Source: an uncultured Clostridia bacterium (lineage in GTDB: Bacteria > Bacillota > Clostridia > Christensenellales > UBA1242). Taken from it: a stretch of 38,637 nt of DNA. The DNA lies in the NCBI GenBank assembly GCA_944377455.1, contig CALWEZ010000041.1, positions 1-38,637 on the forward strand, in the 5' to 3' direction. A program made the position numbers and the translations under genes. Below are positions 16,503-27,209 of this stretch, one piece after another (position 1 is the first letter of the stretch; each line of letters begins with the position of its first letter). The notes under the pieces were generated by a model. It searched no databases and was not told where the DNA came from. It saw only the letters and a list, made by a program, of their open reading frames with translations.

Positions 16503-18239
16503 TTAAATCTTCTTTGTTTTTATCTCTTCTTTAAGGCGAGCGATAAAGTCGTTTAGGTTAAGCCCACTCTTATTTTCATATCCGCGTCCACGAATGGAAA
16601 TTGTCTTATTTTTCTCTTCTTCATCGCCAACGATGATAAGGTATGGAACTTTTTCGTTAAGCGCCTCACGAATTTTGTAGCCTATCTTCTCGTTTCGGTT
16701 ATCACTCTCCGCTCTTAAACCATTTTCACGAAGCGTGGCAGTAATCTCGTCAGCATAGTCGCAATTTCTTTCAGTGAGCGATAGCACCCTAACCTGATCA
16801 GGCGAAAGCCAAAGTGGAAACGCTCCTGCAAAGTTCTCGATGAGCAAGCCGATAAAGCGGTCGATTGAGCCATAGATAACTCTGTGTATCATGATAGGAC
16901 GATGTTTTTCGCCGTCCTCGCCAACATATTCAAGTTCAAAGCGCTGTGGGAGTTGGAAATCAAGTTGAATTGTTCCACATTGCCAGGTTCTGCCAATGGT
17001 GTCTTTTAGGTGGAAATCAATCTTAGGTCCATAGAATGCTCCATCGCCTTCGTTTATGATATAGTCAAGTTTTAACTCATCAAGCGCACCTTTTAAAGCA
17101 TTTGTCGCAAGTTCCCAATCTTCATCACTGCCCATGCTATTTTCTGGACGCGTGGAAAGTTCAACATGATAGGTAAAATTGAAAACCTTGTAGACTTCAT
17201 CAATTAGAGCCACAACATTTTTAATTTCATCCTTAATCTGTGACGGTGTCATAAAGATGTGAGCATCATCCTGCGTGAAACTTCTAACTCTTAATAGTCC
17301 CCCTAACTCGCCCGACTTTTCATATCTATGCACAATACCAAGTTCGCCAAGCCTTAGTGGTAGTTCCTTATATGAGTGCGGTTCGCTTTTATATACAAGC
17401 ACTCCACCTGGACAGTTCATAGGCTTAATGGCATATGTTTCATCGTCGATGGTCGAGAGATACATGTTGTCTTTATAGTGGTCCCAGTGTCCTGATGTTT
17501 CCCAAAGATGACGATTGAGCATGATTGGAGTCATAATTTCCTTATATCCTGCCTTGGTGTGAATTTGACGCCAATAGTCGATAAGTTCATTTCTAATGAT
17601 CATGCCCTTTGGAAGATAGAAAGGAAAGCCTGGTCCTTCTGGCGAAATCATAAATAGTTTAAGTTCCTTACCCAACTTTCTATGGTCGCGCTTTTTCGCC
17701 TCTTCAATCATGTTGATATGCTCAGCAAGTTGCTTTTTATCTGGATACGCATAGACATAGACGCGTTGAAGCATCTTATTCTTCTCACTACCTCTCCAAT
17801 ATGCGCCATTCACCGCGTGGATTTTGAAGGCATAATTTTGAAGTTTCTTCGCGTTCTCCACATGAGGTCCTCGGCAAAGGTCGAAAAAGTCATCGCCTGT
17901 GTAATATAAAGACACCTCTTCATTTTCTGGAAGTTCGTTGATAATCTCAGTCTTATACTCATTCCCTTTAAAAAGTTTAAGCGCCTCTTCTTTTGAAACA
18001 ACCTTGCGCGTGAAATCTTCGCCTTTATTAATTATTTCCTTCATCTTTTTTTCAATCTCAGGAAAATGGTCAGGCGTAAGATTGATGTCAAGGTCGATGT
18101 CATAATAAAAGCCATCGTCAATGCTTGGCCCTATGGTAAGTTTGGTCTTTGGATAAAGGGTTGTCAGTGCCTTTGCTAAAATGTGAGCAAGCGAGTGCCT
18201 TGCCTTTTGAATTTCTTCTTGTTTCTTATCTTTTTCCAT
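16503..18239 (-). CDS. thrS: Threonine--tRNA ligase
   Basis: RHSLAH, DLCRGPH, KRDHRKLG, KPMNCP, FYGPKIDF and IHR motifs. The real start is likely ATG 18239 after AAGGAG. Confidence 0.97.
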   Translation of the reverse strand: MEKDKKQEEIQKARHSLAHILAKALTTLYPKTKLTIGPSIDDGFYYDIDLDINLTPDHFPEIEKKMKEIINKGEDFTRKVVSKEEALKLFKGNEYKTEIINELPENEEVSLYYTGDDFFDLCRGPHVENAKKLQNYAFKIHAVNGAYWRGSEKNKMLQRVYVYAYPDKKQLAEHINMIEEAKKRDHRKLGKELKLFMISPEGPGFPFYLPKGMIIRNELIDYWRQIHTKAGYKEIMTPIMLNRHLWETSGHWDHYKDNMYLSTIDDETYAIKPMNCPGGVLVYKSEPHSYKELPLRLGELGIVHRYEKSGELGGLLRVRSFTQDDAHIFMTPSQIKDEIKNVVALIDEVYKVFNFTYHVELSTRPENSMGSDEDWELATNALKGALDELKLDYIINEGDGAFYGPKIDFHLKDTIGRTWQCGTIQLDFQLPQRFELEYVGEDGEKHRPIMIHRVIYGSIDRFIGLLIENFAGAFPLWLSPDQVRVLSLTERNCDYADEITATLRENGLRAESDNRNEKIGYKIREALNEKVPYLIIVGDEEEKNKTISIRGRGYENKSGLNLNDFIARLKEEIKTKKI

Positions 18240-18269
18240 ATTTATCTCCTTTTCTCGCTTTAAGAGCAA

Positions 18270-18474
18270 CAAAAAACGCCCTTAAAACAAAATTGTTTTT
18301 AAGGACGATTAAATAACCGTGGTTCCACCTTAATTGCACGAAATTCGTGCCACTCTTTTAAAAGCATCTTCAAGCGCAAAAGTGGTTTCATTCTTAAGTC
18401 TCATCAAAGTTTTTCACCAAACAACTCTTCTCTAGGCATGACAACTTAAAACTACTTGTCTTTCACTAAATGCA
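18270..18474 (-). ncRNA. T-box riboswitch leader (Thr specifier ACC)
   Basis: Minus strand shows AGAGA and GGTG stem I motifs, the GAA-ACC specifier (18384-18386), the T-box AAGGTGGAACCACGG (18317-18331) and a terminator with U-tract (18270-18307). Perfect TTGACA-17-TATAAT at 18480-18508. Confidence 0.93.
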
Positions 18475-20506: not shown

Positions 20507-21928
20507 TTATATTTGACCATTTAATCTCAACCTTTTCATAAGGCGCTCCTTGTCCTTTTGTATCTCCGTCTTTTTGACCTTTGGAACATTTTTTGGCTTT
20601 GTCATCAAATAATAGCGGAGTTCGTCCAGCGCGTGGTCGTCCTTCTTAATAGGATTGTCGCCGTCACCCCACCAATATGATTTAAACTCACGAATAAGAT
20701 TTACGCAGTTTTTAAAAATATAAAGTCTTACTCGCCCGTCGGCAGTTCTAAGATAACTCTTCACTGTGGCAATACCTGAAAACATATCCTTGTTGACCTT
20801 TGTGTTAACGTTTATCCCATTTTCGCTGAAAAGTTCCACCACCGTCTTTTCGCTCGACAGTGTCCTTTGGCTTGCCGCTGGGTCGATGAGGGCGGATAGT
20901 TTCCCCGAGCTATTCCGCTTCCAATTCATTCTATCTGCAATTTTTTTGATGCAATTTGCATGATATGAGACATCTTTTTCGCTCTCAAAGTGCTCAGCAA
21001 CAACATAGACATTGCCGTCAAAGTCGACTGCATAAAAGTGTGCCGAAAGTGGATTGTGAAGCCCTGGGTCGATGGAGATATTATCCTGCCATTCCGCTGG
21101 CACGTCAAAAGGTTCAATCACATGCACATTTTCGTCAAACTCGCTGTAAACAAGTCCACTTGTGGCGATAAACTTGCCATACCGCCTTGCCTCCACCTCT
21201 TCTGCCGACATCGACTTTGTCATACTCTCAATTTCATCACTCGAGAGAAATGGATTGTCCGCCCACTCAATCTGCTCATACCAAACTTCTTTGTCGTCAT
21301 TTTCATTTAGATAGATTGTATTATACACCCATGTGAGCCCTTTTAGCGGTGTCATTGTGCCGAAGATTTCTCCGCGCCTATCAAGCACCCTCATGCGACA
21401 TTCTTGATATATGTCATAAGGTGGCTCTTCATCAAACCAGACATAGTCTAAACTTGCGCCCTGAAACTTTTCTCGCCCTTGGTCACACGATTTAAAACCA
21501 ATTTTGCTGAGTCCGCCACATTCACTTCGCACTAAAATAAAATCGATAACTCCGCTGTCCAAACTCCCCTGCGCGCCTGTCACCATAACCACCTTTTCAA
21601 TCGACGACGGCGGAAGATAGTGAAGTATCTTTTGTTGCGCCACATCGCGTTGCACCTGCCGTGAAAGAGAAACCACCCACCCTTCCGTCACTTTGTTTTT
21701 CCTATATGGATGGATGCCCAGTGCCAGATATACCACTTCCACCGCCCCGCACTCAGTTTTGCCAGAACGATTGCCACCAAAAACCCATCGATTCCTTTTT
21801 TCGCATTTATGAAAAAGCAGTTGTTTTTTATGCACCTTTTTGCCCTTGTTGTATCTATATATAGGTAGATGTTTTCTCTTTTTTATCTCATTTTCAATCT
21901 TTAAGATGTTAAAAATTGTTTCTTCCAT
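20507..21928 (-). CDS. Phage terminase large subunit (ATPase plus RNase H-like nuclease), intact and orphan
   Basis: KQ adenine motif, Walker A GGNRSGKT, Walker B VWFDEE, coupling motif TMTP, nuclease SIDPG and DDHALDELRY. Start probably ATG 21928 after GGAG. Confidence 0.9.
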   Translation of the reverse strand: MEETIFNILKIENEIKKRKHLPIYRYNKGKKVHKKQLLFHKCEKRNRWVFGGNRSGKTECGAVEVVYLALGIHPYRKNKVTEGWVVSLSRQVQRDVAQQKILHYLPPSSIEKVVMVTGAQGSLDSGVIDFILVRSECGGLSKIGFKSCDQGREKFQGASLDYVWFDEEPPYDIYQECRMRVLDRRGEIFGTMTPLKGLTWVYNTIYLNENDDKEVWYEQIEWADNPFLSSDEIESMTKSMSAEEVEARRYGKFIATSGLVYSEFDENVHVIEPFDVPAEWQDNISIDPGLHNPLSAHFYAVDFDGNVYVVAEHFESEKDVSYHANCIKKIADRMNWKRNSSGKLSALIDPAASQRTLSSEKTVVELFSENGINVNTKVNKDMFSGIATVKSYLRTADGRVRLYIFKNCVNLIREFKSYWWGDGDNPIKKDDHALDELRYYLMTKPKNVPKVKKTEIQKDKERLMKRLRLNGQI

Positions 21929-22020
21929 TTCTTCTCCAAAAAACAAAAATATTCGCTTTTATATATATTTAGACAAATTTCTTCTAAACCTCTTAAAAGC
22001 GAAAGATTTATAATTTAAGC

Positions 22021-22788
22021 ATGAAAAAAATTATCTTTCTTCTAATATTATCTCTCATATTCCCAATCAGCCCAAACTTTGCAAGCGCCGAAGTGGATGG
22101 CGATTTCTATGGCAAAATAGCGTCCGAAAATGTCCAATTTCTCTCATCGCCAAACTCAAATTCCGCATTGTTTACTCTGCCCTATTCCTACTTTGTCAAG
22201 ATAAACGACGTCTTAGACGATTTTTATGAAGTGGTGTATAAGGATTTAACTGGCTATGTTGCCAAAAGCGACATTAGGCTTATGGAAGGAGTGCCAAACA
22301 CGCCATATCTAAACCTAAACTTTTCCATTTTCACACCTTACTATCTCTATGAACTGCCAAACACCAACTCGAGCGCCTACTGCGAACTTGATGACACGCA
22401 ATCATTCTCGTATTACGGCACGCTCTCTGGCGAAGAGGTCAGTGACAGAAGCGATGTTTGGTATTACGCCTCAGTCACCATTTCAGGAACGACCTATCAC
22501 GGCTATATCTACTCTGAAATAACCAACACCTTGCCTGAAATCACGATAAACAGCGAAGTTTTCACAGAGGTCGACGAAGGCGCGCTTTTTAACTCCACAC
22601 CTGAATTTAACTCGCTATCCACAGGCACAAAGGTCTTGCTTATTGTGGCAATCACCGTGCCGAGCGTGTTCATTCTCTACTTTTTAATCAAGCCAAACAA
22701 ACTTACTAAAAGCAAGGCAAAACCTGAGAAGAAAGTCAGAAAAATTCATCATGGCGACTATTTCGAGTTCGACGACAGCGACTTATAA
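22021..22788 (+). CDS. Secreted, membrane-anchored protein with SH3-like domains
   Basis: Signal peptide ending ASA, FYEVVYKDLTGYV and VWYYASV...GYIY SH3b-like segments, C-terminal TM helix and basic tail. Confidence 0.7.
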   Translation: MKKIIFLLILSLIFPISPNFASAEVDGDFYGKIASENVQFLSSPNSNSALFTLPYSYFVKINDVLDDFYEVVYKDLTGYVAKSDIRLMEGVPNTPYLNLNFSIFTPYYLYELPNTNSSAYCELDDTQSFSYYGTLSGEEVSDRSDVWYYASVTISGTTYHGYIYSEITNTLPEITINSEVFTEVDEGALFNSTPEFNSLSTGTKVLLIVAITVPSVFILYFLIKPNKLTKSKAKPEKKVRKIHHGDYFEFDDSDL

Positions 22789-22865
22789 GTTTAGAATTTT
22801 AATATCTTTTAGCAAATTATATTGAGTTTCATTTATAACTATAAAGTCGCATTAGCCTTCACTTG

Positions 22866-23363
22866 TTATAGCGCAATCTTTTTTATCTCCACCTCGTCAG
22901 TTTTAGAGGATTGAATGTCGTAGTAATAATTTAAAATCCACTTTTCACTTTTAAGTTTGTTTTGAAGGCTAAGGCTGTTATAACCCATATTCAACAACTT
23001 TTTTGTGAAAGATGTTTCCGCCTTGTCCAATCTTCTAAACACCGTTCTCAAACCCAATCCCTTTTCAAAAGCAATATCTTTAAATTTCATGCCTTCAATA
23101 TAACGGCAGATAAGGATGTCCGCCTCATTTTGCCCAATCTTTGTAAGGATGTCCTCAACGAGCAATTTCAAATTGATAAGCGTCACCTTTCTCTCGCCTA
23201 GTTCAATCAATTTGTTCGAGGTCGATAAAACATCATTCCCTTCCAACGAAAAATGATAGGAATTTAAAGCGGTCTTAAGCACAATTCTGTCGATTGCGTC
23301 CGAAACTGTCTCCAAATGCCTATAAACTCCAAGCAATGTTTTAGCCCAAATATTTTCTTTCAT
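22866..23363 (-). CDS. RinA/ArpU-like phage-type transcriptional activator (sigma region 4-like HTH)
   Basis: ILICRYIEGMKFKDIAFEKGLGLRTVFRRLDKA after a helical region. Start ATG 23363 after AAAGGAG. TTGACT-18-TATAAT at 23390-23419. Confidence 0.7.
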   Translation of the reverse strand: MKENIWAKTLLGVYRHLETVSDAIDRIVLKTALNSYHFSLEGNDVLSTSNKLIELGERKVTLINLKLLVEDILTKIGQNEADILICRYIEGMKFKDIAFEKGLGLRTVFRRLDKAETSFTKKLLNMGYNSLSLQNKLKSEKWILNYYYDIQSSKTDEVEIKKIAL

Positions 23364-23548
23364 AACACTCTCCTTTGTAACCATGAAAAATTATAAATAA
23401 TAAAAAATGGCAAAGTCAAAATTTATGCCATTTATTTTTTAACTATTTTTACAATATTTTACAATTACCAAAAATATGGCGTCATTTTGACGGCACTTTT
23501 GCCAGTTTTTGCCGAAAAACCCATATTAATAGAGATATGTATCGAAAA

Positions 23549-25853: not shown

Positions 25854-27209
25854 CTATCCAACATTAAAAATTTGTTTAACTTTTCCATGCTTATCGGCAC
25901 TGAAGCCTTGCATGATACCGTCTTGCGAAACCTTGATGCCCACGCCGTAGCGCGCCATGCTTTTGGTCGCTGCCAGCCTTCCGCCACCGAGACTTCCTGC
26001 CTCAATTTTAAGAATTGCGCCAACTGCAATAATTGTTCCGTCAAAGTCCACAACCGTTGCACCATCAATACCAACAAGATTTTCAAGAAGTCGCCTATCG
26101 AGTTCATAAAGTTTTTTGCCTGCAATGATATTTCTTATCGCCTTTGCCTTCACGCAGTTAAATTTTGTCAAATACTCTTCATAAGTTATATTCTCATCAT
26201 ACGGAAGTGGGTTTGAAACGTTGTATAGTTTTGCGCTTTCTGCAAGTTCCATTTGCTTTTTCGCCTCAAAGTGAGTTTCCGAGATAATGTCGGCAATATT
26301 GATAAGTTTAAGCGCATCGTTCGTCTTATCCTTATTGAGATAGCAAATGCACGCGCCCATATATCCAAACGAGCAGTCAAGTGCAGTGTTGTAAATCGCC
26401 CGCCTAATCTGCTTTGCTGTGTAGGAAACATTGTTGTATAGAAGTCTTATTATTTCATCATGCGAATAAACGCACCACTTGCCGTTACGCTTTGCAAACA
26501 TAAGTTGGCGAGCATAGAAAATTAGAATGTCGCCCTTTGTTGTCAGCACAATACCCACTCTCTTATCGTTACAACTTCGCGCCACCCTATCAAATATATA
26601 CGGCGAAACGGTCGGCGCTTTCTTAGGATTTTTTAAATTAGTGTAGCCAATCAAACTGCCCTTTCTGTCAAACTCCACAAACGAAGAAACGCCATCGGTG
26701 ATTCGAACAAAAAACTCGCGGTTCATAATTTCGCTGTAATTGACCTGCTTGGTGTCATCCACCACATTAGAGAGATTGACAAAAACTCCCATGGAAACGT
26801 TTGTGCCCTCATAGGTTCTCGTCGACCAGCGCTCTAACGAGGATATTATTCCAATGATAGTCTCCGACGCAACATCAGAGGTTATGCTGTCGATAAGCGC
26901 CTTTTCAATAATGGTATTTTGCAACTTTTGCAAATATACCGTGTTTTCAAGACCTGCTTCCGTCAAAGTAGAAATCTCTTCAAGGATTGTTTTAATTAGG
27001 CTGACCTCAAATGATTTAAATGGCTGACCTCTTTTCAAAATCACTCTATATTCATCAATCTTACTCGGTTTAAGCAAAACAGAATTAGCCTTGCCAAGTG
27101 CCACCTCCAAATCTCTTGAAGATGACTCTGTTTCTCCCGCAACAAAAGACCCCGTAAAAAGCGGGATTATCATTTTGTTGACAAATTCATAAAAATGCGA
27201 CTTATCCAT
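25854..27209 (-). CDS. DAC (DisA_N)-domain protein with a large N-terminal domain and a non-canonical active-site motif
   Basis: C-terminal LVGIDGATVV...GAIL...GGGRLAAT...IKVSQDG matches the DGA / G.RHR.A / SEE-type DAC layout. Confidence 0.75.
   Translation of the reverse strand: MDKSHFYEFVNKMIIPLFTGSFVAGETESSSRDLEVALGKANSVLLKPSKIDEYRVILKRGQPFKSFEVSLIKTILEEISTLTEAGLENTVYLQKLQNTIIEKALIDSITSDVASETIIGIISSLERWSTRTYEGTNVSMGVFVNLSNVVDDTKQVNYSEIMNREFFVRITDGVSSFVEFDRKGSLIGYTNLKNPKKAPTVSPYIFDRVARSCNDKRVGIVLTTKGDILIFYARQLMFAKRNGKWCVYSHDEIIRLLYNNVSYTAKQIRRAIYNTALDCSFGYMGACICYLNKDKTNDALKLINIADIISETHFEAKKQMELAESAKLYNVSNPLPYDENITYEEYLTKFNCVKAKAIRNIIAGKKLYELDRRLLENLVGIDGATVVDFDGTIIAVGAILKIEAGSLGGGRLAATKSMARYGVGIKVSQDGIMQGFSADKHGKVKQIFNVG

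Follow-up and report, generated by a model that had tools for sequence, protein, structure and literature searches.

Contig C41 of an uncultured Clostridia bacterium, which is the entire 38.6 kb stretch of DNA analysed here (the window), carries an intact gene for a phage-type large terminase (TerL) among housekeeping genes; the source genome amounts to 817 kb in 53 contigs and is 78% complete. We conclude that this TerL very probably belongs to a vertically inherited, phage-derived particle system that is split into two loci, and we favour the view that the system is a domesticated, podovirus-like gene transfer agent (GTA). Locus A consists of a gene for a regulator (sig172), a gene on the opposite strand for a membrane protein with an SH3-like region (SH3_255), and terL; locus B, on a different contig, consists of head, nozzle and holin genes. 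The parts are intact and have been inherited together. Judging from these genes, the system would produce particles and package random host DNA.

The terminase gene and its structural partners

Locus A and its regulatory sites are arranged in the window as follows.

20507..21928, minus strand: terL, large terminase, 473 aa from the ATG at 21928, with an ATPase domain and an RNase H-like nuclease domain; intact
21929..22020, no strand assigned: intergenic region between the divergent terL and SH3 genes, with a conserved footprint and a second T5G box
22021..22788, plus strand: SH3_255, 255 aa, with a signal peptide, an extracytoplasmic SH3-like region, a C-terminal transmembrane helix and a 32-aa cytoplasmic tail
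22866..23363, minus strand: sig172, regulator with a sigma-70 region 4-like helix-turn-helix (HTH), 165 aa; the open reading frame (ORF) extends to 23384 (172 aa)
23390..23419, minus strand: sigma-70-type promoter-like site directly upstream of sig172 (TTGACT, 18 nt, TATAAT; 11 of 12 matches), a pattern match only, from a consensus scan

The terL frame is a single uninterrupted ORF, with no stop and no frameshift. Read from the TTG at 21946, it spans 20507..21946 on the minus strand and encodes 479 aa; the true start is likely the ATG at 21928, in front of which inspection of the sequence shows GGAG at 21934-21937, and the usual length of homologues is 471-476 aa. The protein matches the Pfam families PF03237 (Terminase_6N; 2.4e-16, 60.5 bits against a cut-off of 22) and PF17289 (Terminase_6C; 5.4e-5, 23.6 bits against a cut-off of 22.6) and the PHROGs family phrog_2, 'terminase large subunit' (6.6e-31), with a sub-threshold match to the PBSX-type TerL model. 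Across nine TerLs from six families of the order, the columns G-x-x-G-K-T, D-E and T-M-T-P and a set of acidic columns are invariant; we take these to be the Walker A, Walker B and coupling motifs and the acidic residues of the nuclease. An N-terminal ATPase domain and a C-terminal nuclease domain in an uninterrupted frame, by which a large terminase is recognised, are thus both present, as stated in the original prediction, which was made from the letters of the window. The source genome has one copy of TerL.

That prediction also proposed that the motor and its activator had been retained by the host, with structural genes elsewhere in the genome as in a GTA, and suggested a search for dispersed portal, capsid and tail genes. 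We searched the source genome by tblastn with proteins of contiguous clusters from other families. All structural-gene homologues were placed on contig C52 (16.5 kb), separate from the terL contig, where portal, capsid, scaffold, TerS-like, nozzle and holin genes lie together as the proposal anticipated.

C52, minus strand: p92, weak match to the small terminase (TerS) family phrog_309
C52, minus strand: p77 (L035:12618-12851), small protein with conserved cysteines, between the TerS core and the portal
C52, minus strand: portal, 637 aa, PF16510 P22_portal (2e-20) and PF23899 SU10_portal
C52, minus strand: putative scaffold, 219 aa
C52, minus strand: major capsid protein, 407 aa, phrog_14242 (2e-46) and SU10_MCP-like in a protein atlas
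C52, minus strand: small head or adaptor protein, about 105 aa
C52, minus strand: small head or adaptor protein, 192 aa
C52, minus strand: p501, beta-propeller tail nozzle, from an AlphaFold model and Foldseek
C52, minus strand: holin 1, BhlA-type
C52, minus strand: holin 2, a second holin

With these genes, which are flanked by polA and ruvX on one side and by an ABC transporter on the other, the genome encodes a complete minimal head and short tail, apart from its motor. The AlphaFold model of p501 (pLDDT 85, pTM 0.87) best matches the tail of podovirus Pa223 (E 4e-19, TM-score 0.70), followed by VP1, GP4, P22 gp10 complexes, SU10 and T7 gp12, and the p501 profile also matches a chain of SU10 tail entries by sequence (3e-4).

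The TerS of this system appears to have lost its DNA-binding domain. In the clade of G027, a genome of another family, the 150-aa gene directly upstream of terL (L030:9399-9851) encodes a clear TerS (phrog_309, 5e-32, profile positions 137-246) with an N-terminal HTH. By contrast, p92 and six of eight homologues tested match phrog_309 only from about profile position 196 onward, and BLASTP aligns residues 3-56 of p92 with residues 63-120 of the full TerS (31% identity, 2e-7). Because p92 covers just the part of TerS that follows the HTH, we read it, at the level of sequence, as a TerS core without the HTH; a TerS lacking a sequence-specific DNA-binding domain, as would befit a GTA, is therefore predicted here. 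The gene for this core is placed after terL, not before it. The adjacent p77 has five conserved cysteines (C-x5-C-x4-C ... C-x2-C) and no family match; every one of the 20 genus loci has kept it, as has another family. One possible role for p77 is to bind DNA through a zinc ribbon, as the partner of the HTH-less TerS.

Upstream of p92 we recognised by eye, in 20 of 22 regions, a run of T and a TG(G/A/T)CA box, followed after 6 nt by a TTGAAA-like -35 element and after a further 17 nt by a TATAAT-like -10 element. A sigma-54 reading of the TGGCAC box was rejected, also by eye: its distance from TTG exceeds the required spacing by one base, and there is no GC at -12. At the other end of locus B, three genus genomes of about 0.8-0.9 Mb carry a gene for a germination protease (Peptidase_A25, GPR) just past the holins (L127:1689-2528, L132:10502-11305 and L123:1998-2753); a spore-germination gene is unexpected in such reduced genomes.

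Inheritance, distribution and mobility

Maximum-likelihood trees (quick IQ-TREE runs, LG+G4) of TerL (26 rows), portal (27) and the host marker PolA (25) give the same three clades within the genus, and the source genome is sister to the same group in each (SH-aLRT 98-100). ThrS was rejected as a rate marker, since it occurs as two or three divergent types within the genus, and PolA was used instead. TerL is more conserved than PolA at every depth, with identities of 66-76% against 54-65% within the genus and 57-65% against 41-48% between families. Compared with the two closest relatives, TerL has a dN/dS of 0.035 (dS 0.50) and 0.018 (dS about 2.5, saturated), where RNase J gives 0.019, ThrS 0.025, GreA 0.012 and YtxC 0.033-0.037. 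The relaxed selection that the original prediction named as grounds for refuting it is not seen. Chromosomal, phage-derived head and packaging genes that are inherited vertically and kept by purifying selection, a property that marks GTAs, are therefore present in this genome.

Two alternatives bear directly on these results. A decaying prophage remnant without function would fit the separation of TerL from the structural genes and the fact that no integrase or replication genes were seen. The frames, however, are intact in nearly all genomes, dN/dS is 0.02-0.04, and the gene is conserved over an order-level clade while evolving more slowly than PolA, so that this reading is already contradicted and hardly credible. 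The second alternative, raised by the original prediction itself, is that TerL was repurposed as a host DNA translocase or nuclease that acts independently of a capsid. Its position apart from the capsid genes and among housekeeping genes, and its very high conservation, are compatible with such a role, but TerL co-evolves with a complete set of head and short-tail genes: TerL and portal form the same clades with similar relative divergence, 22 genus genomes have both, two have the portal only and none has TerL only (n = 24), and in other families TerL lies within the capsid operon. We regard a capsid-independent role as highly improbable.

The system is distributed across the clade rather than patchily among strains. 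TerL was detected in 22 of 24 further genus genomes, with intact frames, and the portal in all 24. The module of regulator, SH3 gene and TerL is present in 8/8 genus loci examined, with flanks that vary between species, and in the 20 genus loci fetched locus B shows one and the same gene order over whatever length each contig covers. An ABC transporter lies upstream of locus B in 18 of these (the other two end at contig ends), and polA lies downstream in six. Where TerL and portal share a contig, they are 6.4, 32, 45, 54, 55 or 150 kb apart, and in three species TerL lies just 3-5 kb past the ABC transporter. Elsewhere in the order the arrangement is compact, a TerL ortholog (57-65% identity) being followed by a portal of about 620 aa, a gene of about 200 aa, a capsid gene of about 385 aa and further genes; TerL and portal are adjacent in five other families (G027, G031, G033, G034 and G040). 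We suggest that the split probably began with the insertion of host genes between terL and p92, and that rearrangements came later.

We surveyed an even draw of 301 genomes of the order, counting as orthologs matches at E<=1e-60 with 55-82% identity. A TerL ortholog is present in 142 (122 of the 260 high-quality genomes). In some families nearly every genome has one (13/13, 13/14, 12/14, 10/14, 9/11, 6/6 and 6/7), and in others none has (0/14 in each of four families and 0/12 in another). Every matching genome has a single TerL match, except G033, which has two. In a draw of 399 genomes from the class, a relative at E<=1e-40 was found outside the order in 11 genomes, nine of them in one family with genomes of 1.3-2.1 Mb. 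Seven genomes of one genus in a family of another order, f96 (G416, G444, G522, G547, G572, G597 and G690), have TerLs that are 55-57% identical, which points to an older origin or to transfer between orders. Among GTDB species genomes, at least 585 stretches encode a relative. The carriers probably constitute a large clade of small-genome gut Clostridia within the order Christensenellales.

Sequenced phages are distant from this system. Among 50,697 phage records, the best match reaches no more than 31% identity for TerL (in podoviruses of Rhizobium, EBPR podovirus 1, Arthrobacter phages and a Pelagibacter podovirus) and 26% for the major capsid protein. The one tyrosine recombinase above cut-off in the source genome lies on a third contig, at neither locus. 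No integrase, repressor or replication module was seen beside either locus, the flanks being thrS, ytxC and rnpB in one case and polA, ruvX and the ABC transporter in the other. The integration, replication or repressor module that accompanies the structural genes of a prophage or a phage-inducible chromosomal island (PICI) was accordingly not found; att sites were not searched for. Since 6-150 kb, with host genes, separate the two loci and neither was seen to have an integrase or replication module beside it, we reason that the system probably cannot move itself, and that it would behave as a GTA rather than a prophage.

IMG/VR contains 346 stretches that encode relatives, mostly on contigs of 4-15 kb that are called viral, with TerLs of 54-67% identity. 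These short contigs (L175-L238) may be fragments of host chromosomes that carry the domesticated cluster, and not phage genomes. They could also be taken to support another reading, in which a satellite or small prophage lineage, for instance a PICI-like island that forms capsids, is mobile, very common in the order and fixed in appearance only; such a lineage would also be in keeping with the genome that has two copies, the clade that has a full TerS with its HTH, and the occurrence in one family of another order of close relatives of TerL, at 55-59% identity. Yet host genes split the cluster in the genus, locus B occupies one chromosomal position in all loci examined, the trees match that of PolA, neither locus has an integrase beside it, all matching genomes but one have a single match, and the 50,697 records include no related complete phage. 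We therefore consider a mobile lineage distinctly unlikely.

The genome with two cluster copies, G033, belongs to another family and is a single contig; the copies lie at G033:C1:992338-993756 and 2218529-2219935, and the open frames of their TerLs, of 533 and 647 aa, exceed the 473 aa of the query. A second single-contig genome with the cluster is G286. In the related G027 clade the HTH-bearing full TerS is encoded upstream of terL, and the module of regulator and SH3 gene is missing. The G033 and G027 relatives may be less domesticated.

The regulator and the membrane protein of locus A

The original prediction described the gene about 0.94 kb upstream of terL as a RinA/ArpU-like activator. 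There is indeed a gene there, co-oriented with terL, that encodes a sigma-region-4-like HTH protein; its likely start is at 23363 and its end lies 920 bp upstream of the TerL ORF. The family assignment holds at the superfamily level only, the window protein having no match to TIGR01636 phage_rinA or TIGR01637 phage_arpU at E<=0.1. The matches of the single sequence, to Sigma70_r4_2 and sigma70-ECF, are all below curated cut-offs, and there is a further match to phrog_36, 'transcriptional regulator'. The sig172 family is homologous across families of the order, with 22-29% identity to genes at the same position in three other families, and a scan of 20 members gave the following.

sigma70-ECF: 15/20 members, best E 3e-8
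TIGR01636 phage_rinA: 9/20 members, best E 4.1e-5, sub-threshold
TIGR01637 phage_arpU: 3/20 members, best E 1.2e-3, sub-threshold
phrog_36 'transcriptional regulator': 19/20 members
phrog_248 'transcriptional activator': 16/20 members

The structural model of sig172 (pLDDT 85) consists of two long N-terminal helices that form a hairpin, a compact helical domain and C-terminal helices. Foldseek returned nothing at E<=0.001 for this model. The top chains, all at E>=0.08, are almost all -35-binding region 4 domains of extracytoplasmic function (ECF) or other sigma factors, superimposing with an rmsd of about 1.0-1.3 A over about 60 residues and a target-normalised TM-score of about 0.8; it is the consistent ranking of sigma region 4 domains alone that we use as evidence. 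A TerS identity for sig172 was rejected, because comparison with another family's full-length TerS gave no similarity (E 0.46) and the fold matches include no TerS.

In its small size, its sigma region 4-like HTH and its place just upstream of packaging genes, sig172 resembles the RinA, ArpU and Ltr late activators of Gram-positive phages, and it differs from them in its long two-helix N-terminal hairpin and in the opposite-strand gene between it and terL. It has the HTH and the position that are typical of RinA/ArpU proteins but lacks the profile match that defines their families. On sequence grounds, sig172 is best described as a sigma-region-4-type factor of the broad class that includes RinA and ArpU, sharing a superfamily-level likeness with them rather than being a demonstrated member. 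It is a candidate activator or sigma-like factor for the particle genes. Its dN/dS (0.073) is constrained, with faster evolution than TerL.

The SH3_255 gene is a conserved part of the regulator-terL module, to which the original prediction gave too little weight. It sits on the opposite strand between sig172 and terL in all eight genus loci examined and in further loci, and it has a homologue in a 257-aa gene that occupies the corresponding position in another family (28% identity, 7e-9). Its match to Pfam SH3_3 (2e-5) is below the cut-off. The cytoplasmic tail terminates in HGDYFEFDxxDL, which is near-invariant in an alignment across the genus, and the gene as a whole is constrained and evolves faster than TerL (dN/dS 0.078). 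A complex prediction for sig172 with the 34-residue cytoplasmic tail of SH3_255, run with no controls, scored 0.00 and is evidence for neither side.

Within the divergent intergenic region, TTTGTCT at 21971-21977 (minus strand) stands out as a footprint, some 43-50 nt ahead of the ATG of terL; its TGTC core after a T run is kept in 18/18 orthologous regions upstream of terL. The second T5G box is nearer the ribosome binding site of terL. A consensus scan found no sigma-70-type promoter for terL within 21929-22020. We suggest that the footprint is a candidate site for the regulator, and that sig172 may co-regulate both loci. A promoter motif shared by the two loci could not be established: their footprints differ, with no more than a T5G(N)C core in common.

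The core-chromosome context claimed for terL was confirmed, including the thrS, ytxC, rnpB and lipoprotein-like genes named at the outset: its housekeeping surroundings comprise thrS with a T-box, ytxC, class A rnpB, RNase J, greA, mnmA, ackA, pta and fhs. Profile scans of the 38.6 kb found no integrase, portal, capsid or lysis genes, again as predicted. The arrangement is not an assembly artefact, because two independent public metagenome-assembled genome (MAG) contigs, one of 230 kb, show the same gene order from greA to thrS/HAD, with TerLs that are 97% and 93% identical; contigs from four other studies span TerL, SH3 gene and regulator. Sequencing runs with the window sequence come from chicken-gut, manure and other metagenomes in 10 studies; none of the runs listed is an RNA run.

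Two neighbours of locus A call for comment. ThrS (window 16503-18272; L036:7025-8809) has just 67-68% identity to its counterpart in the closest relative, against 99% for the adjacent ytxC and 97% for TerL. Within the genus, the identities of ThrS form classes of 75-84%, 50-60% and 42%, with two copies in G019, G022 and G038, which suggests thrS allele replacement or paralogue exchange. A 451-aa protein encoded at 25854-27209 on the minus strand has no Pfam or PHROG family, and its NCBIfam match is negligible, at 17.5 bits where the cut-off is 630. Seven further genus loci carry it 4-6 kb upstream of the regulator, with 65-90% conservation; its C-terminal part may resemble a diadenylate-cyclase-like motif.

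A candidate gene transfer agent

We propose the following sequence of events. The regulator would switch on loci A and B in a subpopulation of cells, and procapsids would then assemble on the portal. TerL and the HTH-less TerS would fill the capsids with host DNA by a headful mechanism, without a pac site or sequence preference. Finally, the holins would free short-tailed particles, which would inject their DNA into related cells.

Domestication for a purpose other than gene transfer must be weighed against this scheme. Altruistic release of DNA or nutrients, killing of competitors, or anti-phage defence by interference with capsid or terminase would each leave a functional, selected system. 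The conservation data fit such a role equally and are silent on what the particles do; two holins are conserved at the end of locus B, and no receptor-binding protein was recognised. Nevertheless, the complete packaging set (TerL with its nuclease, TerS core and portal) is under strong purifying selection, and a tail nozzle for DNA exit has been kept, which is hard to explain without packaging and delivery of DNA. A role of this kind seems to us unlikely.

Several observations weigh against the view that the system is a domesticated GTA. The system is known here from genes alone. No replication or lysogeny genes were seen at the loci; no systematic screen for them was made. Two genus genomes (94% and 89% complete) keep locus B without TerL and regulator, whose absence there was checked against a control genome that has it; two TerL misses are about what incompleteness predicts, but they could be a real loss. 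The two cluster copies of G033 and the full HTH-bearing TerS of one clade mean that some relatives may still behave as phages. The promoter footprints of loci A and B are only loosely alike. Among the genes expected of a particle, no endolysin was recognised beside the holins in C52 or in five genus loci, no tail fibre or receptor-binding protein was recognised in the source genome (78% complete), and the DUF7934 gene that follows the nozzle in other families was not found there above the cut-off.

Few GTAs are known, almost all of them from Alphaproteobacteria. One system from that class, RcGTA, is phage-derived, vertically inherited over a large clade, under purifying selection and encoded at several loci; its TerS lacks sequence specificity, and its activator, GafA, has a sigma-like or HTH domain. 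The system described here shares with RcGTA the vertical inheritance, purifying selection, several loci, TerS without a DNA-binding domain and dedicated sigma-like or HTH regulator (here a candidate). It belongs to an unrelated lineage, however: RcGTA has a siphovirus-like, HK97-type head and tail, whereas the portal and capsid here are P22/SU10-like and the nozzle is that of a podovirus, and the Gram-positive host has a regulator of another family. Portal, SU10_MCP-like capsid and nozzle fold are shared with SU10/P22-like podoviruses, in contrast to which no replication, lysogeny, ejection-protein or fibre genes were recognised and the total coding length is about 10.5 kb.

A closer parallel is FpGTA of Faecalibacterium prausnitzii, also of the gut Bacillota (Nat Commun 2026; PMC12946183). 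FpGTA is encoded by an operon of about 10.5 kb, with a TerS that has no obvious DNA-binding domain, TerL, portal, scaffold, major capsid protein and short-tail proteins, and by a second locus about 125 kb away that includes a holin; the cluster is present in all genomes of the genus, and the capsids, of about 40 nm, carry 8.4-8.9 kb of DNA (PMC12946183). The same paper describes GTA-like packaging by Christensenellaceae genera in three of 25 events, seen as whole-MAG enrichment in the light fraction of virus-like particles (VLPs), and identifies GTA genes in Faecalibacterium only, naming none for Christensenellaceae (PMC12946183). Compared by gene content with that description, the two systems have the same gene set, an HTH-less TerS, a podovirus nozzle and a two-locus layout. 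They differ in host order and in the nature of the split, which here separates terL and the regulator from the head genes and in FpGTA separates the tail and lysis genes from the rest. In addition, the TerS core follows terL here and precedes it in FpGTA, and the module described here adds a sigma-like regulator and an SH3 membrane protein. What sets the present system apart from both FpGTA and RcGTA is the separation of motor and regulator from the head operon, the TerS core behind terL, the embedded SH3 gene and host genomes of 0.7-1.3 Mb. Literature searches on Christensenellales GTAs, on conserved Christensenell* terminase or portal genes and on GTA-like podovirus systems of Bacillota found no description of this gene set among the papers listed.

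The first GTA of gut Bacillota, FpGTA, was described only in 2026 (PMC12946183). Our analysis supplies for the Christensenellaceae clade a concrete, testable set of about 13 genes at two loci, among them a candidate regulator and an HTH-less TerS. Conservation at the level of housekeeping genes in genomes of less than 1 Mb argues for a real benefit to the host. Given the short IMG/VR contigs that are called viral, surveys of the gut virome may be counting a host-encoded system as phages. We tentatively suggest, while regarding it as somewhat short of probable in its entirety, that an ancient podovirus-derived GTA is part of the core genome of a large Christensenellales clade (about half of the sampled species) and has been kept even in genomes of about 0.9 Mb; that its motor gene was separated physically from the capsid genes and came under the control of a dedicated sigma-like factor, together with an SH3 membrane protein for which a part in gating induction is possible; and that it is the machinery behind the GTA-like packaging of Christensenellaceae DNA in VLPs of the human gut.

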